DNA of 32,792 nt from Candidatus Aquidulcis frankliniae. GTDB lineage: Bacteria; Chloroflexota; Limnocylindria; Limnocylindrales; Limnocylindraceae. A program made the position numbers and the translations under genes. The first letter of the stretch is position 1; each line of letters opens with the position of its first letter. The stretch lies in assembly GCA_009925905.1 (NCBI GenBank), contig RFPZ01000003.1, forward strand, positions 1 through 32,792, written 5' to 3'. The notes under the pieces were generated by a model. That model searched no databases. It had not been told where the DNA came from and was given only the letters and a program-made list of their open reading frames with translations. Positions 3,908 through 32,670 of this stretch are shown one piece after another.

Positions 3908-3961
3908 TGGTTGCAAGCTGTTGCAGTAACGACCTCCGCGCGGAGGCGATACGATAGCGAC

Positions 3962-4054
3962 ATGACCGCAGCTGCACTCATTGCCCAAGCCGCTGGCGAG
4001 CCGAGCATCTGTCGATGCCCGTCGCTCTCCTTCGGGCCGTCCTGCGCGCGCTGA
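3962..4054 (+). CDS. Putative leaderless Cys-containing leader peptide (30 aa) of cysK-cysE
   Basis: TACGAT 3950-3955, 6 nt, then ATG. Sequence MTAAALIAQAAGEPSICRCPSLSFGPSCAR*, with Cys codons at 4010, 4016 and 4043. Ends 81 nt before cysK. Confidence 0.65.
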   Translation: MTAAALIAQAAGEPSICRCPSLSFGPSCAR

Positions 4055-4127
4055 GGCGATCGCAACCGGGGACCAAACGGCAGAGGGGGCGGCGGTTGTA
4101 GTCCACCGCCCACCATGTAGCTGGAGG
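4019..4127 (+). promoter_or_regulatory. Putative attenuator with mutually exclusive stems upstream of cysK
   Basis: 4019-4029 can pair with 4085-4095 (11 bp, 3 GU). Alternatively 4091-4096 pairs with 4105-4110. SD GGAGG at 4123-4127. Confidence 0.5.
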
Positions 4128-4135
4128 TACCCAAC

Positions 4136-5125
4136 ATGACCGTTCACAACCCAGGAATCTTTTCTGACAACGCCATCACGATCGGTCGCACCCCGTTGGT
4201 GCGCCTGAATCGTGTTACCGACGGCGCCGCCGCAACGGTGCTCGCCAAGATCGAAGGGCGCAACCCTGCCTACTCTGTGAAGTGCCGCCTCGGCACCGCC
4301 ATGGTGCTCGACGCAGAGAAGCGCGGCGTGTTGAAGCCTGGGATGGAGATCGTGGAGCCGACGAGTGGCAACACCGGCATCGCACTTGCGATGGTCGGGG
4401 CCGCACGAGGCTACAAGGTGACCCTCACCATGCCCGACACCGTGAGTATTGAGCGACGCAAGTTGATCGTTGCCTACGGCGCAACGCTGGTGCTCACCGA
4501 AGGTGCGAAGGGCATGCCCGGCGCGATCGCGAAGGCCGAAGAGATTGCCGCCTCGGACCCTGCACGCTACGTGCTGTTGCAGCAGTTCAAGAATCCAGCC
4601 GGCCCAGCGATTCACGAGTCAACCACCGGGCCAGAAATTTGGGACGACACCGACGGCAAGATCGACATCTTTGTTGCAGGGAGTGGCACTGGCGGCACCA
4701 TCACCGGCGTCGCGCGCTATTTGAAGAAGGGTCGTGGCAAGGCGGTGCAGATTGTTGCCGTTGAGCCAGCTACGAGCCCGGTGATTGCGCAACGCATGGC
4801 GGGCCAGCCGAATCAGCCAGCACCACACAAGATTCAAGGGATCGGGCCTGGCTTCGTGCCAGACATCCTCGACATCTCGCTGATTGACCAAGTTGAGTCG
4901 GTGACGAACGAAGAGGCGATCGCCATGGCGCGTCGAATCGCTCGTGAAGAGGGGATCCTCGTGGGTATCTCGTGCGGCGCTGCGGCACACGTTGCGCTGA
5001 AGTTGGCGCATCTGCCAGAGAACGCTGGGAAGACGATTGTGGTGGTGCTGCCAGATTCGGGCGAGCGCTACCTGAGCACCGCGCTCTACGAGGGTCTCTT
5101 CGATGCGAACGGCATCGCCCTGTGA
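4136..5125 (+). CDS. cysK: Cysteine synthase A (O-acetylserine sulfhydrylase)
   Basis: NPAYSVKCR (PLP lysine), [23 protein letters not shown] and [10 protein letters not shown]. Confidence 0.97.
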
Positions 5126-6012
5126 GCCTTGACGCAACCGAACTGAGTCGCACACTGACCGCCGCTGACGCTGCCCTGGCGGGTGGTGCGGTGGCGGCTG
5201 GCGACCGTCCAACGCGCGGTGAGATCACCCGCGTGCTGGCTGAGCTTCGTTCGGCGCTCTTTCCGCGTGAACTCGGCGTTGCCGCAGATGGTGAGGCGGC
5301 GGTTGCCGCACACCTTGCCTCGGCGCTCGCTGGACTGCGCGAGCAGATCCGACGTTGCATCGTGCTGTTTGCTGCCGAGCGACCAGGTGAGGGACTCGCT
5401 CCAGATCAGGTCGATCGCGTGACGAACGCGTTTGCTGCGGAGCTCCCCACTATTCGCACGCTGATTGAGGGGGATATCGCGGCGGCCTTTGCGGGAGATC
5501 CAGCGGCACGTAGCCGATCAGAGATCCTGCACGGGTACCCAGGCGTACGCGCAATGATCGATCACCGCATGGCCCACCTGCTCTATACGTTGGGGGTTCC
5601 ACTCCTGCCGCGCATCGCGTCGGAAGCCGCTCACTCGGCGACGGGGATCGACATTCACCCGGGTGCAACGATCGGCGAGCGCTTCTTCATCGACCACGGC
5701 ACCGGCGTGGTGATTGGCGAGACGGCGATCATCGGCAGTGGCGTGCGCCTCTACCAAGGCGTGACGCTTGGTTCCAAGAGCTTCCCGAAGGGTGACGATG
5801 GCAACCTCGTCAAGGGGCAGCCGCGCCACCCAATCATTGAAGATGATGTGGTGATCTATTCGGGCGCTACGGTGCTTGGCCGAATCACGGTTGGGCGTGG
5901 TTCAACGATCGGCGGCAATGTATGGCTGACCAAGAGCGTTCCTGCCGGGAGCCAACTGTCGCAGGCGCGCGTGCGCACCGACGAGCTTGCAGCCGAGGGT
6001 TCGGGGATCTAG
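5122..6012 (+). CDS. cysE: Serine O-acetyltransferase (EpsC-type)
   Basis: [37 protein letters not shown] and RHP. GTG start overlaps the cysK stop (GTGA). Confidence 0.95.
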
Positions 6013-6036
6013 CGCCCGGCGGGATAGAATCCCGCC

Positions 6037-6093
6037 ATGCCCACACGCCTTGCATTAGTAAACGCACTCGCCCGCGTCGCCGTGCGCTCATGA
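6037..6093 (+). CDS. Putative leaderless uORF (18 aa) coupled to the ABC exporter
   Basis: TAGAAT 6025-6030, 6 nt, then ATG. Sequence MPTRLALVNALARVAVRS*; its stop overlaps the downstream ATG as ATGA at 6090-6093. Confidence 0.55.
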   Translation: MPTRLALVNALARVAVRS

Positions 6094-7952
6094 GCGGTGG
6101 CATGGGTTCGGGGCGTGGGGGCCACATGTTCGGCGGCGATGACAGCGGCCCAACAAAGCCAGCCGGGGCGGCCCTGCCACTCCTACGACGCGCGGCAAAA
6201 TTCTTTGGCCCATATCGCGGACGACTCGGCGTCATTGGGCTCGCCATCCTTGGGTCTAGCATCTTGGGGCTTGCGAACCCGTATCTTCTCAAGCTCCTCA
6301 TCGACGAGGCGATTCCGCGGCGCGACCTTGGCCTCCTGGCGCTCTACGCCGGGCTGATGGTGGTGGTGCCGATCATCAACGGCGGCATTGGGCTCGCCCA
6401 GGCGTGGCTCACCGCCTCGGTTGGCCAGTTCGTGATGCGCGACCTGCGCAACGCACTCTTCACCCACGTTCAGTCGATGCCGATCCGCTTCTTCTCGGAG
6501 ACGCGCACTGGCGAGATTCAGAGTCGCCTCACCAACGATGTCTCTGGCGTGCAGTCGGTCGTCAGTGATGCCGCTGCAAACCTTGCCTCAAGCATTGCGA
6601 TCGTTGTCTCAACGCTGGTGGCGATGACACTCATTGATTGGCGCCTCACTGCGGTGAGCATCGCCGTTGCGCCACTCTTCCTCTTCTTAACATCGAAGGC
6701 CTCCGCCGCGCGCCGCAAGGCGAGTGGCGAAGTGCAAACGGCGCTTGCCGACCTCACCTCCATTGCTGAAGAGCACCTGTCAGTCGGTGGCGCACTGCTC
6801 GCGAAATCATTCGGCCGTTCCGAGGCTGGTGCCGAGCGCTTCACGCAACGTTCTGGTGAACTTGCCACACTGCAGCTTCGCCAAGCGCTCACTGGCCGAT
6901 GGGTTGGCGTAGTGGTCCAGGTGGTCTTCAGCGGCATTCCAGCGCTGGTCTACTTCGCAGCGGGTTCGCTTGCTGTTGCGGGCGCGCCTGATGCGCCAAC
7001 CATCGGTGACATCGTTGCGTTCACCACGCTGCAAAGCCGACTCTTCTTCCCGCTTGCGTCACTGCTTGGCCTCCAGGTAGAGATCGGCGGCAGCCTCGCG
7101 CTCTTCGAGCGCATCTTCGCCTACCTCGACCTTGTTCCAGAGATTGTCGATGCGCCGAACGCGATCACGCTGACCCGCTCCGGCGTGCGCGGCCAGGTCT
7201 CGCTGCGCGACGTGAGCTTCCGCTATCCGCAGCCGCCCGAGGGGCAGGGCCGACAGCGGCGCGACACTTTCGGTTTGAGCAACATCTCGTTCACGGCGGA
7301 GCCGGGGAGCCTCACCGCTCTCGTTGGGCCATCGGGCTCTGGGAAGAGCACCATCTTGAGTTTGATCCCGCGCTTCTGGGATGCAGGCGCTGGCGCAGTA
7401 CAACTCGATGGCGTCGATGTGCGCGGAATCAAACTTCGCTCCCTTGGCGAGATGATCGGCGTTGTGACCCAAGAGACGCACCTGCTGCACGCGACCATTC
7501 GCGAAAATTTGCTCTATGCGCGACCTGGGGCGACCGATGCACAGATCCTCGTGGCCCTTGCGGGGGCATCGCTGGCCGAGCGCATCAAGGAGCTGCCGCA
7601 AGGACTCGATACTGTTGTAGGGGAGCGTGGCTACAAGCTTTCTGGCGGCGAACGTCAACGGTTGGCAATCGCCCGTGTGCTCTTGAAGGACCCACCCATC
7701 CTCTTACTCGACGAGGCGACCTCGGCACTCGACTCGGTTTCGGAACGCCATGTGCAACAGGCGCTTGAGCGCGCCATGGCCGGGCGCACCACCATCGCCG
7801 TTGCCCACCGACTGAGCACCGTGGCCTCGGCAGATCAGATCATCGTGTTGAATCACGGTGAAATCGTGGAGCGCGGGCGACACGAGGAGTTGCGCACACG
7901 GGGCGGCCTCTACGCCGAACTTGCCGCGGTGCAGTTCGGACTGCACGCGTAG
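6090..7952 (+). CDS. ABC exporter, fused permease/ATP-binding protein (MdlB/MsbA-like)
   Basis: TM domain with TGEIQSRLTNDV, Walker A GPSGSGKST, LSGGERQR, LLLDEATSALD and AHRLST. Start reassigned to ATG 6090. Confidence 0.93.
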   Translation: MSGGMGSGRGGHMFGGDDSGPTKPAGAALPLLRRAAKFFGPYRGRLGVIGLAILGSSILGLANPYLLKLLIDEAIPRRDLGLLALYAGLMVVVPIINGGIGLAQAWLTASVGQFVMRDLRNALFTHVQSMPIRFFSETRTGEIQSRLTNDVSGVQSVVSDAAANLASSIAIVVSTLVAMTLIDWRLTAVSIAVAPLFLFLTSKASAARRKASGEVQTALADLTSIAEEHLSVGGALLAKSFGRSEAGAERFTQRSGELATLQLRQALTGRWVGVVVQVVFSGIPALVYFAAGSLAVAGAPDAPTIGDIVAFTTLQSRLFFPLASLLGLQVEIGGSLALFERIFAYLDLVPEIVDAPNAITLTRSGVRGQVSLRDVSFRYPQPPEGQGRQRRDTFGLSNISFTAEPGSLTALVGPSGSGKSTILSLIPRFWDAGAGAVQLDGVDVRGIKLRSLGEMIGVVTQETHLLHATIRENLLYARPGATDAQILVALAGASLAERIKELPQGLDTVVGERGYKLSGGERQRLAIARVLLKDPPILLLDEATSALDSVSERHVQQALERAMAGRTTIAVAHRLSTVASADQIIVLNHGEIVERGRHEELRTRGGLYAELAAVQFGLHA

Positions 7953-7961
7953 CCCCTCAGT

Positions 7962-9017
7962 TCAGGGAGACGCAATCACCAGGCGCTGAAAACTCGACGG
8001 CACCTGCGCGCCATCAACGCTCCTGAACTGCGCGCTGTGTTCTTGCACTGACCAGCCGTTCGGGGAATGTGCGAGCAGTGCTTTCAATACGGCGTGCGCC
8101 TCCATGCGCGCGAGCGGTGCCCCAACGCAGGCATGCGGGCCGATCCCGAATGCAATGTGGGGTGACATCGCAGGGCGATCGAGGCGCAACTCAGCAGGGC
8201 AGGTGAAGATTGTTGCATCGTGATTCGCGGAGGCGAAATCGAGTCCAACATGCGGTGACTGTTCTGGGTCACCGCCGCTCTCTCCACGATCGATGCGCTC
8301 CATAAGCCCAAGCGGCGTCGTTAGGCGTAGCGTCTCTTCAATAAATGCGGTTCGCACCGCAGGATCGCCACGCAGTGCCGCAACGTGCGTAGGATGCGCC
8401 GCAACCATCCAGGCAATTCCAGCGATCAGGTTCATCACCGTGTCGCGACCACCCGCCAGTAGGAGACTGCCGACGCCGATCTGCTGGTCGCGCGTCAGGA
8501 GCACCCCGGCGATTGGGGTGCTTGCAAGCAGATTGAAGAGGCGTCCACCAGTTCCCGCCGCACCCTCATCGACCGCTCGCTCGAGGAAGGCAAGGAGGGC
8601 AGCCCCGTCGCGTCGCCCGTCGTGATCGCCCCAGACCGAAGGGCCCCACGACACCCACTCCTCAATGTCGCTCGGCCGATCGAGGAGTCGGGCGATCGTG
8701 CGAACGACGAGGGGGAGCCCAACGCCCCGAACTATCTCAAGCTCACCCAATTTGAGCGGTGCAACCAGTTCACGCGCATCTGCTTCGATCCCTTGCTGAA
8801 ATGGGGCAAGTGAACCCTTTGAGAAGAACGGCACAAGAAAGGCCCGCAACGCGGAGTGCAGCGGCGGGTCCGACTCGAGTGGGAGTTGCCGATAGGCGCG
8901 CACATCTTCATCGCCCTGATGGAGCGACGAGTACCGTTCGAAATCTCGCCCGGCCGCGCGGACCGACTCGTAGCCGGTAACGCGTGGCAGCCGCTCAACT
9001 CGTGAGGGGCCGCTCAT
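7962..9017 (-). CDS. Cytochrome P450 (compact, 351 aa)
   Basis: DPPLH, I-helix AGGRDT, ExxR (EETLR) and heme motif FGIGPHACVG. Confidence 0.93.
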   Translation of the reverse strand: MSGPSRVERLPRVTGYESVRAAGRDFERYSSLHQGDEDVRAYRQLPLESDPPLHSALRAFLVPFFSKGSLAPFQQGIEADARELVAPLKLGELEIVRGVGLPLVVRTIARLLDRPSDIEEWVSWGPSVWGDHDGRRDGAALLAFLERAVDEGAAGTGGRLFNLLASTPIAGVLLTRDQQIGVGSLLLAGGRDTVMNLIAGIAWMVAAHPTHVAALRGDPAVRTAFIEETLRLTTPLGLMERIDRGESGGDPEQSPHVGLDFASANHDATIFTCPAELRLDRPAMSPHIAFGIGPHACVGAPLARMEAHAVLKALLAHSPNGWSVQEHSAQFRSVDGAQVPSSFQRLVIASP

Positions 9018-9019
9018 AA

Positions 9020-9430
9020 CTAGCGGAGAGCAACCAAGATCGTGCCGGCAAGACCGAGGTTCACGATGTCGTTACCCGCCTCGAGCAGCAGCACGCCGAA
9101 TCCATGACCGGCAAAGATGCGATGGCTGAGGCCGCTGCCACCAACAATGCCGACGCCGATCAGGAGCCCAACGAGTGCGCCATCAAGCGGTGCGGTGATG
9201 TTGAGGGCGCTCAGAATGAGCGCGAGGACGGTGACCTGCAGGGCCTGGCCGATGAGAACAGAGCCGAAGGCAACCCCCATGTTGATGCCACCACCGGGTA
9301 CATCCTTGGGTCCTTTCCCCATCAGACGCCACCAGGTTGGGAAGAACGTTGCTGGTCCAAACCAGAGGAATCCGCTGACAAAGCTCACGACGGTTCCAGC
9401 AATGATTCCAATCACATTCACTTCAGGCAT
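9020..9430 (-). CDS. DUF1761-type membrane protein
   Basis: Four hydrophobic segments with N-terminal GFLWFGP..F...W; GGGAG SD upstream. Confidence 0.75.
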   Translation of the reverse strand: MPEVNVIGIIAGTVVSFVSGFLWFGPATFFPTWWRLMGKGPKDVPGGGINMGVAFGSVLIGQALQVTVLALILSALNITAPLDGALVGLLIGVGIVGGSGLSHRIFAGHGFGVLLLEAGNDIVNLGLAGTILVALR

Positions 9431-9515
9431 TTCACGCTCCCTCTTGTGCGAGCCGCATGGTCCGCTAGGCCCATTCTATCGCCTCACTTTGTGGTCACGC
9501 GGCTAGAATCTCCTC

Positions 9516-13189: not shown

Positions 13190-13204
13190 GGGTATCCTCC
13201 CCTC

Positions 13205-15978: not shown

Positions 15979-15982
15979 CAGG

Positions 15983-16768: not shown

Positions 16769-16803
16769 AGGGAGAGTGTAGTGCGGGATGGCACACTACC
16801 CCC

Positions 16804-17958: not shown

Positions 17959-17967
17959 GATCACCAC

Positions 17968-19080: not shown

Positions 19081-19115
19081 TCCACCCCTGCCACGCTGCG
19101 GGCAGGAGGTGAACC

Positions 19116-20432: not shown

Positions 20433-20434
20433 CC

Positions 20435-21517: not shown

Positions 21518-21539
21518 AGAGCGGGTGTAGCCTCTAGTG

Positions 21540-22799: not shown

Positions 22800-23717
22800 C
22801 TAGGGGAGGCGCACGCGGCGCCAGGAACTCTCGTTCCCAGCCGCATCAATCAGGCGCACCTCAACGGTGACGCCGCGCATCAACAAGACAACCTTCCCAC
22901 CCGTAGATTTCATGAACGGGCCGATTTCAATCTCATCACCGGCGGTGAACCGGAGCGGCTTCTCGTAGCCAACGCGAACCTCAACGGCAACGGTGCCGGT
23001 TCCCGTATCGCTACCCGCAACCGTAAGTAGAAATGGAGGCGGGTTTCCACGCGATGCCCGTCCTTCGCGCACGCGCACGCTGCTGATTCGTGGATCGGTG
23101 CGATCTCGCCCAGCGACCACCGCGAACGGCGTTCGCTCTGAGCCACCAACGAATCGCATCCATACCATTGCGCTTGATGTGCCGAGCTGTGGAAGTCGCG
23201 ACCAGCCACGTACCTCGCGGATTGTGTAGGTGCGTGCTGTGCGGAAGGTTTGTCGGTCGGCTACCTCGATAGCACGGGCACCCGGCGGCGCATAATCCTG
23301 CAGGACCTGCAGCGCGAGGTCGGCATCAAACGGTGAACTAGCAGTGGCGGCGGCGAGAAGATCGCCGAGGGTAAGCTCTGGCGGGGTTGGCGCGGTCGGC
23401 TCCTCACTTGGAGAAGCGTCTGCCTCGCCACCATCGCCACCTTCACTATCGCTGGCAGCAGGGTCGGGCTCCTCCCCCGGATCCTGACCAGGGTCGGGCT
23501 CTGGTTCTTCTTCAGCAGGGGCGGAGGCATCAGGGTCGCTGCCCTCATCTGGGTCGGAGCTCTCGTCGGCGATTGGATCCCCATCAATCGGCTCTTCGTC
23601 GGCCGCAGCGACGAAGCCAGCGCCCAGCCCAAACGTCCGCGGCGCGGCGACAGAGCCAACGATCAGGGCGACCAGAGCCGCCGCCACAAGCCAAGGAGTT
23701 CGCTGAGTGCCCTTCAT
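22800..23717 (-). CDS. Hypothetical secreted protein with acidic Pro/Asp/Glu linker and C-terminal Ig-like domain
   Basis: Signal peptide, low-complexity DPDEGSDPDASAPAEEEPEPDP region, and DRTDPRISSV...DAAGNES. Confidence 0.6.
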   Translation of the reverse strand: MKGTQRTPWLVAAALVALIVGSVAAPRTFGLGAGFVAAADEEPIDGDPIADESSDPDEGSDPDASAPAEEEPEPDPGQDPGEEPDPAASDSEGGDGGEADASPSEEPTAPTPPELTLGDLLAAATASSPFDADLALQVLQDYAPPGARAIEVADRQTFRTARTYTIREVRGWSRLPQLGTSSAMVWMRFVGGSERTPFAVVAGRDRTDPRISSVRVREGRASRGNPPPFLLTVAGSDTGTGTVAVEVRVGYEKPLRFTAGDEIEIGPFMKSTGGKVVLLMRGVTVEVRLIDAAGNESSWRRVRLP

Positions 23718-23768
23718 ATTCCTAGTGTGGCAGGTGCGCGTGCCAGCAGCGTGGCACGTGCGAGATAC

Positions 23769-25283
23769 CTATTCAGCGACGAGGAACGCCTCAAACTGCC
23801 ATGGGTCGGACGGCACCGGCTTGGCGGGGTCAGGGAAGAGCTCGAGTCGGTCTTGCAGCGGCGTCCAGTCCACGGGGCCGGACCAGCGTGTGCCGATGTA
23901 GCGACGAATGTCGGCTAGAAGTTCATCGTGTGGCAACTCATCTGGAACTCGAAGCCCTTCGTTCGGATGCCGCAGGAGCCACGCCACAGCCGCAATCACC
24001 GACCCTGCTACCTGTAGCGTGGTCGCCGAGTGCCCGGCTAGGTTGGCGCGCGCCTCGTCAATGCCAAGTAGCGAACCGCTCCACCACGCCTTGAGTGGGT
24101 GACCGAGCAACAGAACCCCCAAGCGATCCTCGCCGCGAATGATCTCGTTGTTCAGCAGGCGGAACCGTTCTGGATGCTTCCAATTGTTTCCGCGCAGCTC
24201 ATGCACAGAGGCAATGGCAGAGTCTGACGGGCAGTAGGCGTAATAGACCGTAGGTCGATACTGCGCGCTTCCATCGGCTCGCCTAACAGTCAGCCAGTCA
24301 CTCATGGTGAACGCCTCGCCGTGGCGAATCAACATTCCGATCGTTGGCAGCCCCTCCTCGGCGGCGCGCGCAGGTTCGGCGCCGGGAACCCAGGTGCGCA
24401 CGAGCGTCTCCATGCCCGCGCGTTGAATCAGGATCTGATTGCGAGGGCCGTCGCCAGTATGTGAAAGCCCACGTTGCGGGAGTTCTTCCTCGTGTGTACC
24501 CCAGCCAAGTTCTGCGGGAGCAACACCCTCTTCGTAGAATCCTTCTCCCGACCAGGTGTTCACAAACTCGCCAACCTCTTTCGGCTGATCAGTGTGCTGC
24601 GTGTCGCGCTCTGCAATCTGAATCACTTTGACGCCAGACGCCTCTGCGATTCGCCCATGATCTCGATCCGCCAGCGCGTCGGTTAGGGCTTCGCGTGCGG
24701 AACCCGATACAAGTCCGCGATTTAGGAGCGCTGCACCAAGCTCTTCAAGTGCGAACTTCACCTCGTGGCTGACCCAGCCGGGGTTGGCGCCGTGCTCAAC
24801 AATGGCGCTTGGACCGCTGTTGTCACCCCAGCTGCGAATCATCTCGCGCATAGCCATGTGGCGGGCATACAGCGTTCGTGAGGTTGGCTCTTGCTCCGAG
24901 ATGTTTGTATACGGCTCCCACACCTCAACGCTCGTGTTTAGGTAGCGCACGCCGGCAGCACGACACCAACCGATGATCGTGTTGGCATCAATGTTCCAAG
25001 CGAGGTCAAGGAGTATGTCGCCGCTGGAGAGTCGCTCGGCCAAGAACGACGAGAGGTTCTCGCGCGTCACGGCAGCCTGCTCATACGTAACCCCTGCTGC
25101 AATGGAATCGGCGATGCGATGGCGTGTGTCCGCCATCTCCACGACGCGAATAGATCGTGGATCAAACCCAAGGTCGCGGATCATGAGCGGAACAACCGCC
25201 TGGCCAATGGAGCCACACCCGAGTACGAGCGTTCGTGCCGGGCGCGGCACTTCTGCCGCGACCATCGGGGCAGCAGCGGTCAC
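23769..25283 (-). CDS. hss: Homospermidine synthase
   Basis: Rossmann GCGSIG, YLNTSVEVW, HGANPGWVS, AERDTQ, FVNTWSGEGFYEEG.PAELGWG, HGEA, YRPTVYYAY and ATTLQV. Confidence 0.9.
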   Translation of the reverse strand: MTAAAPMVAAEVPRPARTLVLGCGSIGQAVVPLMIRDLGFDPRSIRVVEMADTRHRIADSIAAGVTYEQAAVTRENLSSFLAERLSSGDILLDLAWNIDANTIIGWCRAAGVRYLNTSVEVWEPYTNISEQEPTSRTLYARHMAMREMIRSWGDNSGPSAIVEHGANPGWVSHEVKFALEELGAALLNRGLVSGSAREALTDALADRDHGRIAEASGVKVIQIAERDTQHTDQPKEVGEFVNTWSGEGFYEEGVAPAELGWGTHEEELPQRGLSHTGDGPRNQILIQRAGMETLVRTWVPGAEPARAAEEGLPTIGMLIRHGEAFTMSDWLTVRRADGSAQYRPTVYYAYCPSDSAIASVHELRGNNWKHPERFRLLNNEIIRGEDRLGVLLLGHPLKAWWSGSLLGIDEARANLAGHSATTLQVAGSVIAAVAWLLRHPNEGLRVPDELPHDELLADIRRYIGTRWSGPVDWTPLQDRLELFPDPAKPVPSDPWQFEAFLVAE

Positions 25284-26260
25284 TTCAGGGATGCAATGAG
25301 ATCAGCGACGAATCGCGGACCATCAACCTTCATCGGCACTCGGACGAGTGGCGGAGTTGAATCCTTGCCGCCGTTGCGCTCCCGAGTCTCGCGAGCGTCG
25401 GCCGCTGGAGCCATCCAGGCACGTCGGTCGATGATCGTTGCGCCGCGCGTTGGACCGGTGGTATTCACCTCCACGGCGCGATCGAGCCACTCGGTCATAT
25501 AGGTGGGGTCGGCCACGATGCCCGCGGCGAGCGGATCATGCAGCGGGCATTCGCGCGTGCCGAACGTTCGCTGATAGACATCGAGGTAGTGGCTCAACAC
25601 GCTCAGCGCAAACTTCGAGCGCACCGATCCGATCGCCTCAATCTCGGCAAGCTCTTTGGTGCGGAGTCGTGTGACCTGCGTGACGTCCAGGCCGACCATG
25701 GTGACTGGCCATTCGGCGCCAAAGACGAGATTGGCCGCCTCAGGGTCGTGCCAGATGTTGGCCTCGGCAGTGGCAGAGGCGTTCCCTTCGTGCGCGATCG
25801 CACCACCCATCACTACAACCGAGCGCACGCGTCCGGCAAGTTCTGGATCAAGGCAGAGGGCGAGTCCGAGGTTGGTCAATGGACCGACAGCGAGTAGGTC
25901 AATCTCCCCGGGCATCTCGCGGGTAAGGCGCAACATCTGTGAAACCGCATCTTCGGCAACGGGTCCGCGCTTCGGCGCGGGCTGGTTCGTATTGCCGAGA
26001 CCATCTTCACCGTGTACCCACTCTGCAGTGGCGAGTGGCTGGGCCATTGGTCGTCGCGCGCCGATCGCGACCGGAACATCATCGAGGCCGCAGAGCTCCA
26101 GTAGTCGGCGGGCGTTGGTGGCCGCGAGATCTGACGGGATGTTGCCGTGGATGCTGCCAACAGCGATCAGTTCAACATCGCTGCGCCCGGCGAGGTGAAG
26201 CATGGCGATCGCATCATCGATCCCCACGTCGGCGTCGAGCAAGATTTTTCGGCGTTCCAT
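25280..26260 (-). CDS. Nucleoside hydrolase (IUNH family)
   Basis: DADVGIDDA, VHGEDGLG, GPLTN, AEANIWHDPEAA and LHDP. Confidence 0.93.
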   Translation of the reverse strand: MERRKILLDADVGIDDAIAMLHLAGRSDVELIAVGSIHGNIPSDLAATNARRLLELCGLDDVPVAIGARRPMAQPLATAEWVHGEDGLGNTNQPAPKRGPVAEDAVSQMLRLTREMPGEIDLLAVGPLTNLGLALCLDPELAGRVRSVVVMGGAIAHEGNASATAEANIWHDPEAANLVFGAEWPVTMVGLDVTQVTRLRTKELAEIEAIGSVRSKFALSVLSHYLDVYQRTFGTRECPLHDPLAAGIVADPTYMTEWLDRAVEVNTTGPTRGATIIDRRAWMAPAADARETRERNGGKDSTPPLVRVPMKVDGPRFVADLIASLK

Positions 26261-26373
26261 AAGGGGGAGAGTGTACGGGTTTCGCCCCCCGCCTGCGCAC
26301 CTGATGCGTGCCTAAAGTGCGCCAGGCCCCTGCTACGATCGCCCAGAGTTATTCAAGGAAGGCGAGGGGATCC

Positions 26374-27159
26374 ATGCCACACCTGGCGCTCGTGGTGCAC
26401 TCCTACGTAGACGAAGATCCGCGCGTCCGTCGTGCCGCCCGCGCCGCGGTCGCCGCTGGTTGGCACGTCAGCATCATCTCGCTACAGCGCGATGGCGATC
26501 CGGCTCGAGGTGAGCTTGACGGTGCCCAACTCTACCGCCAGCCTGTGCAGCGTCATCAAGGGGCGGGGATCAGCACCTATGTTGTGGAGTATGGGCGCTT
26601 CGCCGTGCGGGCTGCCCGTGAGCTGCTCCGCATTGACCGAGAGCGCCCGATTGATGTTGTCCATGCCAACAGCGTTCCAGACTGGCTCGTCTTCGCGGCA
26701 GTTCCACTGCGCCGGCGCCATCGCATCGGTCTGATCCTTGATCTGCACGAAGCGTCACCAGAGCTCTTCCGCCTCGGCCGCGTGCCATTTGAGGCGGTGC
26801 CAGCGCTGGTTCGCGGCGCCGACATTGCTCTCGCGCCAACGCGGCTTGACGAGTTCACCGATCTCTCAATCTCCAACAAAGTGTTCGAAGGGATGGCGAG
26901 CGGTCGCCTCGTCCTGGGAACACGTCTGAAGACGCTGGACGATCTCGTGCCTGAAGAATCTGTTGCTCGCTACACATCGGGGAGCGCCGAAGAGGCTGCC
27001 GCCGTCATCCGTCGACTAGCGTCAGATCCAGCAGAGCGCGCAAGCCGCATTGATTCTGGCCTTGCGGCGATTCGCGGCGGACTGAGCTGGGAGGCGGCTG
27101 GTGCCGCCTACGTCCAGCGACTTACCGCGCTGCTGCCGCCGCCCGTCGACCCTCGGTAA
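26374..27159 (+). CDS. GT4 family glycosyltransferase with in-frame internal deletion (possible pseudogene)
   Basis: N-terminal DPRVRR...DVVHANSVPD...LDLHE joined directly to C-terminal GRVP...ADIAL...NKVFEGMASG. Only 261 aa. Confidence 0.78.
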   Translation: MPHLALVVHSYVDEDPRVRRAARAAVAAGWHVSIISLQRDGDPARGELDGAQLYRQPVQRHQGAGISTYVVEYGRFAVRAARELLRIDRERPIDVVHANSVPDWLVFAAVPLRRRHRIGLILDLHEASPELFRLGRVPFEAVPALVRGADIALAPTRLDEFTDLSISNKVFEGMASGRLVLGTRLKTLDDLVPEESVARYTSGSAEEAAAVIRRLASDPAERASRIDSGLAAIRGGLSWEAAGAAYVQRLTALLPPPVDPR

Positions 27160-27661
27160 CCCAGGAGCTCTTCGGCACCGGTTGCTTCGGCGGCCGCTCA
27201 CCAAATCGTCGCTTCCACTCACGTCGCCCGGAGAGGTAGCGCGTGACCTCAAGATCAGCCGCCCTGATCGCCGCGCCGCGCAGCCAGGTGCGGTGCAGTT
27301 CAAAACACCGTTTCGCCCACGCATCGCCGTGGGAGTCACCACTGATGAGGTGCGCAAGTTCATGGAGTGCGGTCCCCTTGTCGTAGGAGCAGAGGAACAT
27401 CTCACCGGTCTCGGTGATCACCCAACCGAACGGGTGCGAGGGTTCGCGCCGCGCTCCGGTGTGGTCGTGGATGCGCACCCACTCGAGCCTGCGTTTAGCA
27501 CGCACTGTCGCACGCGCGAGCAACTCGAGCGTTGGGCGCCAGTGCGGCCAGGCGGCAGCGGTAAAGCCACGCATCGGGCGAACTTCAAAGGGAAGGTCAA
27601 GCGCCCATTTCGGCGCCTCGGTCCAACGGCCAGCGATCTTGACGCGATACATACGGCTCAT
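27122..27661 (-). CDS. Small zincin-like (SprT/YgjP-like) putative metallopeptidase
   Basis: TALHELAHL followed by SHGDAW; TAGGGT lies 6 nt before the ATG. The 3' end overlaps the GT4 gene by 38 nt. Confidence 0.7.
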   Translation of the reverse strand: MSRMYRVKIAGRWTEAPKWALDLPFEVRPMRGFTAAAWPHWRPTLELLARATVRAKRRLEWVRIHDHTGARREPSHPFGWVITETGEMFLCSYDKGTALHELAHLISGDSHGDAWAKRCFELHRTWLRGAAIRAADLEVTRYLSGRREWKRRFGERPPKQPVPKSSWVTEGRRAAAAAR

Positions 27662-27708
27662 GGCTTCACCCTATCGCGGTCTAAGTATTGCCGGCGTATC
27701 GCGGTGGG

Positions 27709-28494
27709 CTAGCGGAGGGCGCTTGCACCCACTGAGCGCACACGCTTCAAGAATGCTCGGGTACGGGCATCACGCGGTGCGCCAAAGATCTTCTCTGGCG
27801 AGCCCTGTTCAATAATGCGTCCGCCCTCGAGGTAGCAGATGCGGTCGGCAACATCGGCGGCGAAGGCCATCTCGTGGGTTGCGATCAACATTGTCGCGCC
27901 ACCCTTTGCCAGTGCGCGCAGCGCCTCGAGCACGTCGGCAACTAGGACCGGGTCAAGCGCGCTGGTGATCTCATCAAGCAACAAGACTTTCGGTTCTGTT
28001 GCCAGTGCGCGCGCAATCGCGACGCGCTGCTGCTGCCCGCCCGAGAGGCTGTCGGGATAGGCGTTCGCCTTGGCGGCAAGGCCAAGCTGCTTCAAGAGCG
28101 CACGTGCGCGCTTCTCCGCAGCAGTGGGGGTCAAACCGAGGGCCACACGTGGTGCAAGTGCCACATTCTCGAGCGCAGTGAGGTGCGGGAAGAGGCTGAA
28201 CCCCTGGAAGACGATGCCGAGCTGGCGGCGCGTCTCATCCGCATCGCGGTCATCGGCACTCACAGCGCGACCGTCGAGCGCGATGCTGCCGGCGTCAATC
28301 GGCTCGAGAAGGTCGGCGCAGCGGAGCAGGGTTGACTTGCCTGAACCCGAGGCCCCAATCAGGCAGACCACCTCGTGCTCCGCGAGCGTAAGGTCGATCT
28401 TGTCGAGCACCAGTGCCCGCCCATAACGCTTCGAAACGCCGCGCAGCTCAAGCACTGGCGCGGCTGCAATCCGCTTCGCTTTCACGCGGGCCAT
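27709..28494 (-). CDS. Polar amino-acid ABC transporter ATP-binding protein (GlnQ-like)
   Basis: GASGSGKST, LFPHLT, LSGGQQQRVAIARAL, LLLDEITSALDP and THEM. Confidence 0.95.
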   Translation of the reverse strand: MARVKAKRIAAAPVLELRGVSKRYGRALVLDKIDLTLAEHEVVCLIGASGSGKSTLLRCADLLEPIDAGSIALDGRAVSADDRDADETRRQLGIVFQGFSLFPHLTALENVALAPRVALGLTPTAAEKRARALLKQLGLAAKANAYPDSLSGGQQQRVAIARALATEPKVLLLDEITSALDPVLVADVLEALRALAKGGATMLIATHEMAFAADVADRICYLEGGRIIEQGSPEKIFGAPRDARTRAFLKRVRSVGASALR

Positions 28495-29300
28495 CAGCGT
28501 GCTCCTCCTTGCTGAGCGGCGCGATCCTTGGCGGCGAGGCGATCAACAAGTCGCGTCATTGGAATCGTGATCACCAGGAAGATCAGCGCCGTTGTCATCA
28601 GTGGTGTGAAGTTGAAGTTGGCCGACTTCAGAATCTGTGCCTGCTTAAAGGCCTCGACGACACCGAGAATCGAAACGAGTGCAGTGTCCTTCTGCAGTCC
28701 GATAAAGTCATTCAACAACGGCGGCACAACGCGACGAAGCGCCTGCGGCAGCACCACAAATCGCAGCGCCTGGAAGCGCGTCAGGCCAAGGGCTCGTGCG
28801 GCGCGCTCTTGCGACGGGTGAATGGATTCAATGCCGGCCCGGTAGACCTCACTCACGTAGGCGCTGTAGATCAGTACAAGGGTGACGAGCGCCCAGAAGA
28901 ACGGCTCCTTCGGCACGCCAGGAAGTCGAAGTGCGGGAACGCCGAAACCGAGCACGTAGATGAGCAAGATGCTGGGCACTCCACGGAAGAAGTCGGTGTA
29001 GATGGTGGCAAAGATGCGTAGTGGCGCAAATGCAGGGTTCGTGATGGATCGGGCAAGAGCAATTAGGAGCCCGATCGGCAGAATGAGGATCTCTGCCAGC
29101 ACGAAAAGTTGGATGTTGATAAAGAACGCACCCACAACATCAGGGAGCGAAGTAGAGAAGTATGTCCCATCAAAGAAGGCCTTCTGAACGAGTGGCCAGC
29201 TCGGCGATGATCCGATCGCGATCGCGAGCAGCGTCGCGACAAAAAGGGTGCTGACGACGGCGACGAGGGTTCCCTTGCGGGCCGACCTCGCCGCCGTCAT
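28494..29300 (-). CDS. Polar amino-acid ABC transporter permease (HisM-like)
   Basis: FFRGVP, SAYVSEVYRAGI, VVLPQA and KDTAL. Confidence 0.95.
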   Translation of the reverse strand: MTAARSARKGTLVAVVSTLFVATLLAIAIGSSPSWPLVQKAFFDGTYFSTSLPDVVGAFFINIQLFVLAEILILPIGLLIALARSITNPAFAPLRIFATIYTDFFRGVPSILLIYVLGFGVPALRLPGVPKEPFFWALVTLVLIYSAYVSEVYRAGIESIHPSQERAARALGLTRFQALRFVVLPQALRRVVPPLLNDFIGLQKDTALVSILGVVEAFKQAQILKSANFNFTPLMTTALIFLVITIPMTRLVDRLAAKDRAAQQGGAR

Positions 29301-29312
29301 CGTGCGATTCGC

Positions 29313-30233
29313 TTACTTCAGGACTGGCGCGCTCGCCTTGTCCGCAATCCACTCGGTGAGCAGTGCCGCCAGCGTGCCATCGGCCTTAAGGGCATCGACA
29401 ACGGCTGAAACACATGCCGTGAGTGCTGAGTCCTTCTCGAGCACGATTCCGAACTGCTCTTGGACGCCGCCCTCCGATGGGAGCTGTCCAACGATGATGC
29501 CGCCCGTGAGCTGCGCATCACGCATGTAGAACGCAGTTGGAACGTCGGTCACGATGCCGTCAATGATGCCGCCATTCAGCGCAGCAACGGCCTCGTCGTT
29601 CGTATTAAACACGGCGGCTTCGGTGTCTGGCTTGATGACGTTATTGATTGCATCGAGGCTCGTCGTGCCGATCTGTGCACCAAGCTTCGCCGTCTTCAGT
29701 TCGGCAATGCTCGTTGCGCCAGCAATTGGCGAACCCTCGATCGTCACCACACCCTGGGCAACGTCGTAGTACCCGCTGCTGAAATCAATCGCCTCGGCGC
29801 GCTCCGCCTTGATCGAGACCTGATTCAGGAAGAGGTCAAAGTCCTTTGCGCCAGGCGCGAAAGATGCATCAAAGGTGGTGTGAATCCACACCACATCGGC
29901 AGTGGCGAAGCCGAGCTTCTCGGCAACGGCGTATGCCACCGCTCCCTCATAGCCCTGACCCTTTGCTGGATCATTGTTGTAATCACCGGTCCACACCGTG
30001 GCGCCCTCATTGCCACCCTGGAACCACGGGCTGTAGGCCGGGTTGTCGGTGGAGAGAGTGAGCTTCCCTGCCGTCTTCAGTGCCAACTTGTCTTTTGCGC
30101 ATGAAGCGTCAAGAGATGCCGATGGTGAAGCTGCGGAGCCGCCACAGGCGGCGAGGAACATCGCCATCGCCATGACCACGACCGCCATACGTGTGGTCTG
30201 GCCGATTGCGATGCGTGAGCGCGTTGTGCTCAT
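29313..30233 (-). CDS. Polar amino-acid ABC transporter substrate-binding lipoprotein
   Basis: Lipobox LAAC, ERAEAIDFSSGYY and GAQIGTT. ATG 30233 is 7 nt from the GGAGG SD, whereas ATG 30239 is only 1 nt from it. Confidence 0.92.
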   Translation of the reverse strand: MSTTRSRIAIGQTTRMAVVVMAMAMFLAACGGSAASPSASLDASCAKDKLALKTAGKLTLSTDNPAYSPWFQGGNEGATVWTGDYNNDPAKGQGYEGAVAYAVAEKLGFATADVVWIHTTFDASFAPGAKDFDLFLNQVSIKAERAEAIDFSSGYYDVAQGVVTIEGSPIAGATSIAELKTAKLGAQIGTTSLDAINNVIKPDTEAAVFNTNDEAVAALNGGIIDGIVTDVPTAFYMRDAQLTGGIIVGQLPSEGGVQEQFGIVLEKDSALTACVSAVVDALKADGTLAALLTEWIADKASAPVLK

Positions 30234-30303
30234 ATCCATACCTCCTGTACAGCCGCTATTGGCGACGATCTGACACAGCGTCAGTGCGACGGTGGGGCGG
30301 TGA

Positions 30304-30339
30304 TCAGCGCGCGGCGCGCCGTCGACGTTGTGTCCCCAC
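30304..30339 (-). CDS. Putative leaderless Arg-rich leader peptide MGTQRRRRAAR of the ABC importer operon
   Basis: Extended -10 TGcTATCCT (30355-30347), 7 nt, then GTG GGG ACA CAA CGT CGA CGG CGC GCC GCG CGC TGA. Confidence 0.6.
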   Translation of the reverse strand: MGTQRRRRAAR

Positions 30340-30379
30340 GTGCGGAAGGATAGCAGGGGGGTGCTGGCTCGAAACCGCG

Positions 30380-32627: not shown

Positions 32628-32670
32628 CGTGGACCTCCTGTGTGCCAACTCCTGTGCGAGCGCTCAGGTA

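Follow-up and report, generated by a model that had tools for sequence, protein, structure and literature searches.

Here, we describe two leader regions on opposite strands of a 32,792-nucleotide stretch of DNA from Candidatus Aquidulcis frankliniae (contig RFPZ01000003.1, positions 1 to 32,792; the window), one upstream of cysteine-synthesis genes and one upstream of an amino-acid transporter operon. Leader 1 (+ strand) consists of a -10 box, TACGAT (3950-3955), followed after 6 nt by an ATG at 3962 that opens a 30-codon short open reading frame (sORF; 3962..4054), a putative leaderless Cys sensor with the translation MTAAALIAQAAGEPSICRCPSLSFGPSCAR-stop. An 81-nt spacer (4055..4135) with a G-rich block at about 4082-4096 and the Shine-Dalgarno sequence GGAGGTA at 4123-4129 separates this sORF from cysK, encoding cysteine synthase A (4136..5125; NCBIfam TIGR01139, 450.9 bits against a cut-off of 350.95; Pfam PALP). 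The next gene (5122..6012, + strand) encodes a cysE-like serine O-acetyltransferase (NF041874 (EpsC), 160.1 bits against a cut-off of 150; Pfam Hexapep) that scores 165.1 bits with TIGR01172 (cysE), under the cut-off of 210.65, and the choice of start codon is uncertain, since the gene's open frame extends back to 4972, overlapping cysK.

Leader 2 (- strand) has a -10 box, TATCCT (30352-30347), within an extended -10 element, TGCTATCCT (30347..30355), that forms the promoter of the transporter operon. After 7 nt, a GTG at 30339 opens an 11-codon frame (MGTQRRRRAAR, ending in TGA; 30304..30339), and a 70-nt spacer with GGAGGTA at 30245-30239 leads into three genes for a polar amino-acid ABC transporter (27709..30233, - strand): a binding protein (30233-29313; Pfam SBP_bac_3), a permease (29300-28494; BPD_transp_1) and an ATPase (28494-27709; ABC_tran). 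The binding-protein gene most likely starts at ATG 30233; an earlier ATG at 30239 lies only 1 nt past GGAGG and is not retained in distant relatives. Every substrate-specific NCBIfam model scored below its cut-off for this transporter (best scores: Lys/Arg/Orn binding-protein subfamily, 87.8 against 256; cystine permease, 120.5 against 300).

Background frequency of the shared features

An earlier note on this DNA, whose description of the two layouts is borne out feature by feature, read both leaders as leaderless sensors (for Cys and Arg) in a general system that may replace transcription factors, with the shared Ala-Arg-TGA tail as a possible termination or pausing element. Its remark that neither operon adjoins a regulator gene holds for the immediate neighbours, which encode an (R)-SAM hydrolase-like and a weak VanZ-like protein. 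The closest gene that resembles a regulator, at 724-1380, encodes a TetR protein.

The tail itself, the 10-mer CGCGCGCTGA, has exactly two copies in the window, one on the + strand (4045-4054) and one on the - strand (30313-30304), and at least two copies also arose in 18 of 100 shuffles of the window. The 1.23-Mb draft genome holds 17 copies, where Markov models of orders 1-5 predict 17.9-25.2, and none of the 17 closes a called gene. Ala-Arg is the commonest C-terminal dipeptide of called genes (33/1085), and the leader 2 copy forms the loop and 3' arm of an RNA helix. On these two grounds, background frequency and placement in a helix, CGCGCGCTGA is not supported as a common termination or pausing element; its sharing is a coincidence of GC-rich sequence.

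The rest of the shared layout, a -10 box 6-7 nt before the start, a cluster of one codon and a strong GGAGGTA, is present in both leaders and favors a general system, but part of it is generic. Of 1002 called genes, 101 have TANNNT exactly 6 nt upstream of their first start codon and another 20 have it at 7 nt. Leaderless initiation is common in this genome, with 268 long ORFs at spacings of 6-7 nt compared with 52-77 at control spacings. GGAGGTA is uncommon: it lies before 4 of 1045 called starts and, in addition, before the leader 2 gene. This rarity again speaks for a common system; the motif is simply a strong Shine-Dalgarno sequence. Codon enrichment, which the note proposed as a check, is weak evidence for sensor ORFs on its own: in a set of 4175 ATG/GTG ORFs (8-40 codons) that begin in non-coding DNA, no residue is more frequent than Arg (14.3%), 1.0% of the ORFs contain RRRR and 4.3% contain at least three Cys, and by composition alone the leader 1 sORF is unremarkable. 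Leaderless sORFs of 2-60 codons with a non-coding start show no bulk excess either (46 at spacings of 6-7 nt, 41-56 at three control spacings), which counts against a general system.

A conserved, probably leaderless sORF upstream of cysK-cysE

Leader 1 belongs to a genus-wide family of leaders. The pattern GGNGARCCNWSNATHTGY gave 72 matches in 40 of 42 genus genomes, against 0 matches for its reversed control. We distinguish 53 loci, with 19 before cysK, 23 before a DUF4395 gene and 9 before a rhodanese gene, and 2 further loci, counted with the DUF4395 type, whose contigs break off too early; Pfam hits to DUF4395, Rhodanese and SufE confirm the identity of downstream genes. All 53 carry TANNNT 6-7 nt before the start, and start codon, frame and length are retained throughout. 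The genome of the window has at least one paralogue of its own, on contig C7 before a DUF4395 membrane-protein gene, and in close relatives a family leader precedes a rhodanese-SufE pair. TACNNT with 6-nt spacing is common to all 19 cysK-type loci. A scan of species-representative genomes recovered the leader 1 sORF at 17/17 loci, each with TANNNT 6 nt before ATG/GTG and cysK downstream; the start codon, a length of 29-30 codons and the TGA stop are retained in 17/17 related genus loci.

The leader 1 transcript is predicted to begin at the A of ATG 3962 and would be leaderless. No canonical -35 hexamer was found 16-18 nt from the -10 box. An unstranded inverted repeat, TGCAA-N4-TTGCA (3912..3925), centered about 44 nt 5' of the predicted transcription start and retained in the majority of same-genus cysK loci, may be a promoter element or the site at which a regulator binds; a related string, TTGCA-N6-8-GCAGTAA, has 3 genome copies (at leader 1, before the C7 paralogue and on contig C14). 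An RNA-library contig covers 3836-3998 and crosses the predicted start, which means read-through from the upstream gene, DNA in the library or a start that is not exclusive.

The family signature, G-E-P-S-I-C (3995..4012, + strand; GGC GAG CCG AGC ATC TGT in leader 1), ends on the first Cys codon. Between classes its codons vary synonymously: Gly as GGC/GGT/GGG/GGA, Glu as GAG/GAA, Pro as CCG/CCC and Ser as AGC/TCG/TCC/TCA. Codons of invariant residues that vary number 5 in the cysK type and 10 in the DUF4395 type when read in frame, against 0-3 in shifted frames, and isolated third-position changes span codons 1-17. This pattern indicates that the first 17 residues of leader 1, ending in G-E-P-S-I-C, are under amino-acid-level selection. 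A point against a Cys sensor is that Cys codons are few: the cysK type has C-R-C and one more, and the other two classes have a single Cys. Two classes share the Ala-Arg-stop ending with different stop codons (TGA or TAA/TAG); its retention can be taken in favor of the note's model and fits common descent. The third class stops right at the Cys codon, after 16 residues rather than 30.

We weighed two other roles for this conserved core. One is that it acts as RNA, as a hairpin or a protein- or ligand-binding element, with translation incidental. A stretch of 27 nt around the Cys codons shows no change even where cysK leaders are only 74% identical overall, which also fits a purely RNA-level element; a hairpin, GCAUC-UGUC-GAUGC, can be formed over the Cys codons, and a hairpin in shifted register can be drawn by eye at the same place in the DUF4395 and rhodanese types. 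Core changes between classes are nevertheless only synonymous, the Ser switch between AGC and TCN needs several substitutions, and the third-position pattern across codons 1-17 and the start codon, frame and length retained at every locus are likewise against it, as is the absence of any Rfam match for leader 1. We regard this explanation as decidedly unlikely. The second, that the GEPSIC peptides work in trans as functional small proteins, for instance in sulfur handling, and not as sensors in cis, we hold to be very improbable: 16-17 residues are conserved at the amino-acid level, the Cys is invariant and family members adjoin rhodanese, SufE and cysK genes, but the region after the Cys is variable or, in the 16-residue class, absent, and each copy lies directly 5' of a different sulfur gene, on the same strand and with its own promoter, which is the layout of a cis leader. 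A search for a related protein family found none and was uninformative. In these comparisons, leader 1 behaves as a conserved leaderless sORF that is translated and positioned for control of cysK-cysE; most likely it is a cysteine sensor for the cysteine-synthesis genes that follow it.

How such a sensor might act was approached by folding. In the RNAalifold prediction, the G-rich block pairs with the C-rich stretch 3' of the Cys codons and the Shine-Dalgarno region pairs with sORF codons 10-12; compensatory change affects only 3 of its 40 pairs. Across cysK-type leaders, 1 to 86 of 100 shuffles of matched composition did at least as well as the post-Cys/G-rich pairing (73 of 100 for the window's own leader), and constrained folding with a ribosome at the Cys codons left predicted Shine-Dalgarno accessibility unchanged in all 8 leaders tested. 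No intrinsic terminator was found in leader 1, and the genome has a Rho gene. For the transcription start, a stall at Cys, the sense of regulation and its output, we infer the following. When charged tRNA-Cys is scarce, the ribosome would pause on one or more Cys codons, its tunnel occupied by the conserved nascent peptide, and would cover the C-rich stretch just 3' of them; the RNA would then stay in a form that permits cysK-cysE expression, possibly by keeping the ribosome-binding region open, by analogy with the mycobacterial Ms5788A leader, or alternatively by keeping Rho off the transcript. When Cys is plentiful, the ribosome would finish, the leader would refold and cysK-cysE expression would drop. 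The same sensor, with its own promoter, would act before the DUF4395 gene and, in close relatives, the rhodanese-SufE pair, so that the three kinds of leader would form a small, ribosome-run cysteine/sulfur regulon.

An independent leader lies on contig C100, where a leaderless Phe/Tyr peptide, MVNRFFFRYPA, with a G+C-rich hairpin and U-run (an intrinsic terminator), precedes an aro operon encoding DAHP synthase, EPSP synthase and shikimate dehydrogenase. Leader 1, the C7 paralogue and this leader therefore support the existence of tiny leaderless sensor ORFs in this organism. The note's broader proposal has some support to this extent.

A structured 5' untranslated region upstream of the transporter operon

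The region from 30340 to 30239 (- strand) folds as a 5' UTR of about 100 nt that ends in the Shine-Dalgarno sequence (30245-30241). It contains helices P1 (30339-30334 with 30297-30292), P2 (30321-30315 with 30311-30305), P3 (30284-30280 with 30274-30270) and a weak P4 (30264-30262 with 30256-30254), all on the - strand. Standard pairs fill 98.6% of 428 pair cells. Nine pairs, carried by P1-P3, have changes in both partners, and sliding the partners by 1-3 columns leaves 0-3 such pairs, although the 25 sequences form essentially two clades and these compensatory changes may reflect few independent events. G-U is tolerated (7 U-G at pair 59/71 and 5 at pair 23/33), which favors an RNA helix over a DNA palindrome. 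Upstream, CTGCTATCCT is found in 26 of 27 aligned genus loci, the remaining locus being a run of N there, and no -35 hexamer was found. A covariance model of the UTR (R1) has one site in the window's own genome and sites in 5 of 6 further genus genomes, with none in 144 genomes from other families of the class; against Rfam 15 (4227 families) there was no match at E up to 10.

The Arg-rich frame of leader 2 (11 codons, within P1 and P2) is poorly kept. Its start is GTG in 13 of 25 genus genomes and GCG in 12, and its TGA is present in only 2 (the window's own genome and G006); the frame extends to 27 codons in ten genomes and stops after 3 in one (G025), the RRRR run is lost in G014, and the conserved block falls in different reading frames in different clades. 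The missing start, the rare TGA and the 3-codon stop rule out a conserved Arg sORF, and the frame is a by-product of GC-rich helices. The leader is most likely a cis-regulatory RNA that begins at the transcription start of the transporter operon. Of the two sensors that the note had proposed, only the Cys one is thus kept. A general system of Cys and Arg sensors draws some support from the 13 genomes in the window's clade that retain GTG where the transcript is predicted to begin. Against it stand its poorly conserved Arg member, its tail at background frequency, the presence of RRRR in 1.0% of non-coding sORFs and the below-cut-off scores of every substrate-specific model for the transporter; sequence comparison with relatives has largely refuted it, and we consider it extremely unlikely.

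A separate suggestion is that a translated leaderless sORF was added to the RNA structure of leader 2 within the window's clade and contributes to control, for example by opening P1 and P2. The GTG is at the predicted transcript start in 13 of 13 clade genomes, 12 of these have an open Arg-rich frame, either 11 or 27 codons long, and a 5' RUG is described as sufficient for leaderless translation in mycobacteria (10.1101/834739). The U of GUG is, however, explained by its P1 partner, with U-A and C-G covarying; the length of the ORF is not conserved, with a stop at codon 4 in G025; and persistence of the frame carries little weight because the clade is 81-97% identical. We think this gain unlikely. 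Taken together, the two leaders are probably unrelated and their 10-mer coincidental, leader 1 being a translated, Cys-sensing leaderless sORF and leader 2 a regulatory folded 5' UTR.

Comparison with known systems

Arrest peptides that sense metabolites or tRNAs, such as TnaC, SpeFL, SecM and ErmCL, have a conserved nascent peptide upstream of a critical codon, and those that stall at termination place this codon at the stop. In layout only, the GEPSIC class ending in Cys-stop resembles them, with a putative stall-at-termination geometry. The C100 Phe/Tyr leader is like classical attenuators (pheL/pheA, trpL and hisL type) in its hairpin and U-run before DAHP synthase and unlike them in being leaderless, with no Shine-Dalgarno sequence in front of its sORF; lacking a terminator, leader 1 falls outside this type. 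Leader 2 is comparable to Rfam riboswitches and structured 5' UTRs, being multi-helix, covarying and ending at the operon's Shine-Dalgarno sequence, but it matches no Rfam family, and among the genomes searched it was confined to this genus, as a single copy in each.

Candidate cys-operon leader peptides in Actinobacteria, for which Rho-dependent termination was proposed (Seliverstov et al., 2005, PMC1262725), share with leader 1 a short ORF with Cys codons 5' of a cys operon and the absence of a conserved terminator hairpin. They have Cys runs near the stop with no conserved non-Cys motif described, and do not come from Chloroflexota.

The closest parallel is in mycobacteria, where Cys-rich leaderless sORFs that precede cysK1-cysE, or a small hydrophobic protein together with the cysA2 sulfurtransferase, are described as responding to cysteine via ribosome stalling (10.1101/834739; Shell et al., 2015, PMC4633059). 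These polycysteine attenuators (Ms5788A, Rv0815A and Rv2334A) form a 'Cys ribulon', a 'ribulon' being the earlier proposal of sORFs in place of transcription factors (Canestrari et al., 10.1101/834739). In the account of Ms5788A given there, the ribosome-binding region is kept open and pairing of the Cys codons with the Shine-Dalgarno region defines the mechanism, a pairing that folding did not find in leader 1. As those reports present the Cys ribulon, leader 1 resembles it as an unannotated leaderless sORF that is the first cistron and has no intrinsic terminator, in having several independent loci for one sensor amino acid, and in a close match of targets (cysK-cysE, a thiosulfate sulfurtransferase (rhodanese) and a small hydrophobic protein). 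The leader 1 family differs in lying in Chloroflexota rather than Actinomycetota, in having C-R-C or a single Cys in place of a polycysteine tract, and in conserving a 16-residue peptide ending in GEPSIC over three paralogous classes. The idea of sORF sensors has thus already been published for mycobacteria, and leader 1 and its family would represent a variant of it in a Chloroflexota lineage.

A probable cysteine leader and its peptide family

Both amino-acid leaders proposed in an earlier note lie exactly where it had placed them, with the -10 boxes, start codons, spacers and GGAGGTA motifs it described and with the downstream genes it implied, cysK with a cysE-like gene for one and a polar amino-acid ABC transporter for the other. 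Leader 1, on the forward strand, has a -10 box TACGAT (3950-3955) placed 6 nt ahead of an ATG at 3962, a 30-codon sORF (3962-4054 including the stop; MTAAALIAQAAGEPSICRCPSLSFGPSCAR), and an 81-nt spacer with GGAGGTA at 4123-4129, after which cysK begins at ATG 4136. The cysK product scores 450.9 bits against TIGR01139 (cut-off 351), and the next gene encodes a cysE-like acetyltransferase. The reading frame of this second gene is open from 4972, which would let it share as many as 154 nt (4972-5125) with the end of cysK; its true start is probably near 5122, giving a 4-nt overlap typical of translational coupling.

A search for the leader returned 18 loci with similarity, one of which is interrupted by a contig end, and all 17 remaining same-genus cysK loci retain the -10 box, the 6-nt spacing, a start codon, a frame of 29-30 codons and a TGA stop. 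The gap between -10 box and ATG is 6 nt in all 19 distinct cysK-type loci, which equals the leaderless spacing found genome-wide. Substitutions in codons 1-17 of these loci are mostly isolated and in third positions, and the variable codons that keep an invariant amino acid number 5 in frame, versus 0 and 3 in the shifted frames. The Cys codons of leader 1 are arranged as C-R-C plus one later Cys. Leader 1 is a real sORF, and for this leader the reading of the earlier note, a putative cysteine sensor, was right.

Contigs assembled from four metatranscriptome runs cover cysK, cysE and parts of leader 1. One (4038-4422) bridges the leader into cysK, a weak link given that library DNA is possible. 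Assembled contigs cannot reveal a 5' end or regulation, and these prove nothing on the 5' end of leader 1, because another (3836-3998) crosses the predicted transcription start at 3962. Contigs of two riverine RNA libraries (X1 and X2) match only the invariant leader core (3998-4037), and both of their flanks are those of a diverged relative of the L017 leader type, so that these libraries must contain the leader of two species or more.

Leader 1 belongs to a wider family defined by the peptide core G-E-P-S-I-C (GEPSIC). When the window's own genome was screened for leaderless sORFs, a paralogue emerged on contig C7 (1594-1686, forward strand, locus L086; MSAAEFIASVAGEPSICRRSHAPGLRPLAR), located 65 nt ahead of a gene for a DUF4395 membrane protein. 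A third class, found in close relatives, has 16 codons, MTS(M/T)QLRALEGEPSIC followed directly by TGA, and lies upstream of a two-domain rhodanese gene; the gene after the rhodanese is SufE by Pfam in G003, the sole locus at which the next gene was scanned. By synteny, the third-class copy of the window's organism falls beyond a LUD-domain gene (32016-32648), past the end of the window's contig, and it is absent from the assembled contigs of this genome.

A degenerate G-E-P-S-I-C pattern gave 72 matches in 40 of the 42 genus genomes, versus none for the reversed pattern. The fetched DNA holds 53 distinct family loci: 19 before cysK, 23 before DUF4395 genes, 9 before rhodanese genes, and 2 more, counted beside the DUF4395 group, whose contigs break off too early. 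All 53 have TANNNT 6-7 nt before the start codon. The six core codons differ between classes only synonymously, including AGC versus TCG, TCC or TCA for Ser, and this pattern of codon change is strong evidence for selection on the peptide. The sequence after the Cys codon is variable or absent across the classes; Ala-Arg-stop is retained in both 30-codon classes, with TGA in one and TAA or TAG in the other. The DUF4395 and rhodanese classes have one Cys each, and two adjacent Cys codons occur only in one cysK variant (L018/L068). A conserved, translated-looking sORF, predicted to be leaderless and carrying an invariant Cys codon, precedes each of three sulfur or cysteine gene sets.

The family has a narrow distribution. 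The cysK-type leader pattern was found at 17 loci in a scan of species representatives, all in Candidatus Limnocylindrus, Candidatus Aquidulcis or unclassified Chloroflexota metagenome-assembled genomes, and the exact pattern occurs nowhere else among approximately 185,000 representatives. No GEPSIC copies were found in 23 genomes of the neighbouring family, apart from two single scattered pattern matches. A sample of 401 genomes from the phylum similarly gave scattered single matches only. In many of them the degenerate slot codes for a residue other than Ser, and some of these larger genomes were hit by the reversed pattern as well. One in-genus match (G185:C3) was rejected as chance, being a 30-codon frame without leaderless architecture, and a match to the same 18-base string in G184:C66 was also taken as chance. 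In f2, a family of the same order, no such sORF is present at the cysK homologues, where the neighbours are cysE-cysK or a CysO-like protein upstream.

How the cysteine leader could act

If leader 1 works as its counterparts do in mycobacteria (10.1101/834739), a ribosome that is waiting for Cys-tRNA would hold it in an expressing state. No terminator-like site was detected in 3850-4200 around leader 1, nor in 30180-30450 around leader 2. RNAalifold pairs sORF codons 10-12 of leader 1 with the Shine-Dalgarno region, without covariation, and the C-rich stretch after the Cys codons with a G-rich block; only 3 of its 40 pairs show covariation. Constrained folds in which a ribosome footprint covered the stop or any of the Cys codons left predicted Shine-Dalgarno accessibility unchanged in 8 leaders. 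Duplexes between the post-Cys stretch and the spacer (RNAduplex) reach -23 to -35 kcal/mol, as do many composition-matched shuffles; the exceptions are leaders L017, L018 and L128, for which 5, 1 and 2 of 100 shuffles, respectively, were as good. Folded as single sequences, neither leader 1 nor leader 2 is more stable than shuffles (z = 0.14 and 1.06). The window's genome encodes rho, making a Rho-dependent route possible for leader 1, as has been proposed for actinobacterial cys leaders (PMC1262725).

The leader 1 promoter has no -35 hexamer at the usual distance, and it carries a conserved inverted repeat centred near -44, with a similar motif ahead of the DUF4395 leader. Control by a transcription factor may thus operate here as well, and this possibility weakens the proposal of the earlier note that tiny leaderless sensor sORFs stand in for transcription factors in this organism; that such sORFs exist is upheld. 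The region 3912-3949 holds the inverted repeat TGCAA-N4-TTGCA, the string TTGCAGTAAC and, after them, a second and short inverted repeat, CCTCC GCGC GGAGG (3933-3946), whose sequence varies among relatives while its hairpin potential seems to persist. The region could combine a regulator site with the terminator of the upstream gene.

A folded RNA ahead of the transporter operon

Leader 2, on the reverse strand, has TATCCT (30352-30347) placed 7 nt ahead of a GTG at 30339, a short frame (30339-30304 including the stop; MGTQRRRRAAR) and a 70-nt spacer before GGAGGTA; ATG 30233 is the best candidate for the start codon of the binding-protein gene. The operon encodes a polar amino-acid ABC transporter, for which all substrate-specific NCBIfam models score below cut-off. 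The earlier note took the frame to be an arginine sensor, and comparison with relatives does not sustain this. Of 25 same-genus genomes, 13 have GTG where the transcript is predicted to begin and 12 have GCG. TGA occurs at the same place in only two of the GTG genomes, those of the window's organism and G006, and 10 of the 13 read on to 27 codons. The Arg run is broken to R-R-P-R in G014, and in G025 the frame stops after 3 codons, ahead of any Arg codon. The invariant block GCGCCGCGC is read in a different frame, from an internal ATG, in some distant genomes.

Rather than an Arg sORF, leader 2 is a folded RNA. Downstream of a conserved extended -10 element (TGCTATCCT), it forms three helices with compensatory changes (U-A/C-G in P1; C-G/U-A in P2; C-G/G-C and U-A/C-G in P3) and a weak fourth helix, P4. 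Standard pairs fill 98.6% of 428 pair cells, and 9 pairs have changed on both sides, versus 0-3 when partners are slid by 1-3 columns; independent compensatory events are few, because the sequences fall into what are essentially two clades. G-U pairs are frequent, which favours an RNA helix rather than a DNA palindrome. A covariance model locates a single site in the window's genome, has hits in 5 of 6 other genomes of the genus, and detects nothing in 144 genomes that belong to four other families of the class. Two complementary invariant stretches were also noted on the reverse strand, GCCGC atop P2 (30316-30312) and GCGGC just before the Shine-Dalgarno sequence (30254-30258), which by their complementarity could form a pseudoknot or an alternative pairing.

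The ten bases shared by the two leader ends, CGCGCGCTGA, which the earlier note suggested were a termination or pausing element, are a chance coincidence, even though the observation itself was accurate and formed the statistical core of its argument. The string occurs twice in the window, as it does equally in 18 of 100 window shuffles, and its 17 copies in the draft genome (1.23 Mb, 61.8% G+C, 154 contigs, 89.6% complete) are at background frequency, with 17.9-25.2 expected under Markov orders 1-5, a result that the earlier note itself had given as grounds for refutation. None of the 17 copies closes a called gene; Ala-Arg is the commonest C-terminal dipeptide of called genes (33/1085). In leader 2, the string makes up the loop and the 3' arm of helix P2.

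Leaderless starts, other leaders and known systems

The first start codon is preceded by TANNNT at a distance of exactly 6 nt in 101 of 1002 called genes, and at 7 nt in 20 more, together about 12% (121/1002), over a background of approximately 3 per spacing. ORFs of at least 80 codons with leaderless architecture number 268, versus 52-77 at control spacings (3.5-5 times). Leaderless mRNAs therefore seem to be normal in this lineage, whose same-genus genomes span approximately 0.7-1.4 Mb, and leaders 1 and 2 use the two favoured spacings (6 and 7 nt). The general attenuation system that had been proposed is partly borne out. Leaderless sORFs in bulk show no excess (46 at spacings of 6-7 nt versus 41-56 at control spacings), but their list includes both Cys leaders as well as a leader of a clearly different, third type, which lies on contig C100.

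The C100 leader (locus L085, 604-639, forward strand) has TTGACC, 17 nt, TAGAGT, 6 nt and an ATG opening the peptide MVNRFFFRYPA. A conserved hairpin and U-run come after it, followed by genes for DAHP synthase, EPSP synthase and shikimate dehydrogenase. Among 19 anchorable loci, 18 retain the leaderless sORF (30 were fetched, of which 9 were not anchored and 2 were incomplete), with peptides of two clades, M(V/A)NRF(F/Y)FRYPA and MTTYRYF(R/M)SPV. This leader looks like a classical aromatic-amino-acid attenuator, but leaderless. Two screens of the whole genome, one for amino-acid runs in sORFs and one for terminators in 5' UTRs, which did not single out the trp, his, leu, ilv or thr operons, turned up no convincing case other than the Cys and aromatic leaders. 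Separately, contig C96 (7472-7591, forward strand) has a leaderless 39-codon hydrophobic ORF, MTNSALLLTPAFGGLFVLFAALIGGISNLLGLLIQPRRG, with a terminator-like hairpin after it, 124 nt ahead of a 580-residue gene; it may be a genuine small membrane protein.

We consider the GEPSIC peptide the more interesting result and the structured transporter leader second. The former is a candidate cysteine-specific arrest peptide. A fuller reading, which we put forward tentatively and think rather unlikely to hold as a whole, is that the conserved 16-residue peptide is a new cysteine-specific ribosome arrest peptide, in which one Cys codon alone, placed in one class immediately ahead of the stop, reports the supply of cysteine or Cys-tRNA; that a streamlined freshwater Chloroflexota thereby runs a cysK-cysE, DUF4395 and rhodanese-SufE regulon by ribosomes, with an origin independent of the mycobacterial polycysteine leaders; and that leader 2 represents an undescribed class of cis-regulatory RNA for an amino-acid transporter. 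To our knowledge, cysteine-sensing leaderless sORFs have been experimentally shown only in mycobacteria. Were the reading true for this uncultured, genome-reduced lineage of some 1.2-1.4 Mb, it would point to ribosome-run regulons being older or more easily evolved than thought, nearly the same targets as in mycobacteria would be governed by a sensor built differently (a conserved peptide and one Cys codon, with no Cys run), and a compact, sequence-defined candidate arrest peptide would be available to test. It would also help to explain how biosynthesis is controlled in very small genomes with few transcription factors. The lesson of leader 2 is that GC-rich RNA helices can give rise, as a side effect, to an sORF seen in a single sequence, and that comparison with relatives separates such cases cleanly.

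The concept of leaderless sensor sORFs is already in print. In mycobacteria, Cys-rich leaderless sORFs were reported in 2015 before cysA2 (thiosulfate sulfurtransferase) and other Cys genes (PMC4633059), and in 2020 these were shown to be cysteine-responsive translational attenuators, with one example before cysK1-cysE and one before a small hydrophobic protein and cysA2; the replacement of transcription factors by sORFs was also proposed there (10.1101/834739). For Actinobacteria, candidate cys leader peptides without terminators had been predicted in 2005 (PMC1262725). Our search of a library of open-access papers found no description of leaderless sORF leaders or of the GEPSIC peptide in Chloroflexota, and a recent paper on this lineage contained none of the pertinent terms. 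The window's organism is known only from metagenome-assembled genomes. Among known RNA families (Rfam 15), leader 2 has no match at or near the gathering score; there are none in the whole window at gathering thresholds and none for either leader at E up to 10. Classical leader-peptide attenuators have an intrinsic terminator, a hairpin plus U-run, with an alternative antiterminator; such a terminator is present in the C100 leader, and none was found at leaders 1 and 2.

Leader 1 probably works like the mycobacterial Cys family, the ribulon that it resembles in architecture and in near-identical target genes; like the mycobacterial sORFs, its family lies upstream of, and in an operon with, genes of cysteine or sulfur metabolism. 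Mycobacterial leaders have at least two consecutive, usually C-terminal, Cys codons, whereas the window's sORF has none consecutive, and we therefore file leader 1 as a variant, not a member, of that family. In mycobacteria, a duplex between the Cys-codon region and the Shine-Dalgarno region is relieved by a stalled ribosome; here, the predicted pairing of codons 10-12 with the Shine-Dalgarno region shows no covariation, and duplex energies are no better than those of shuffles in most leaders. Leader 1 belongs to another phylum, Chloroflexota, and, unlike the mycobacterial leaders, its family has a conserved 16-residue peptide common to three paralogous classes, in one of which the Cys codon is directly followed by the stop.
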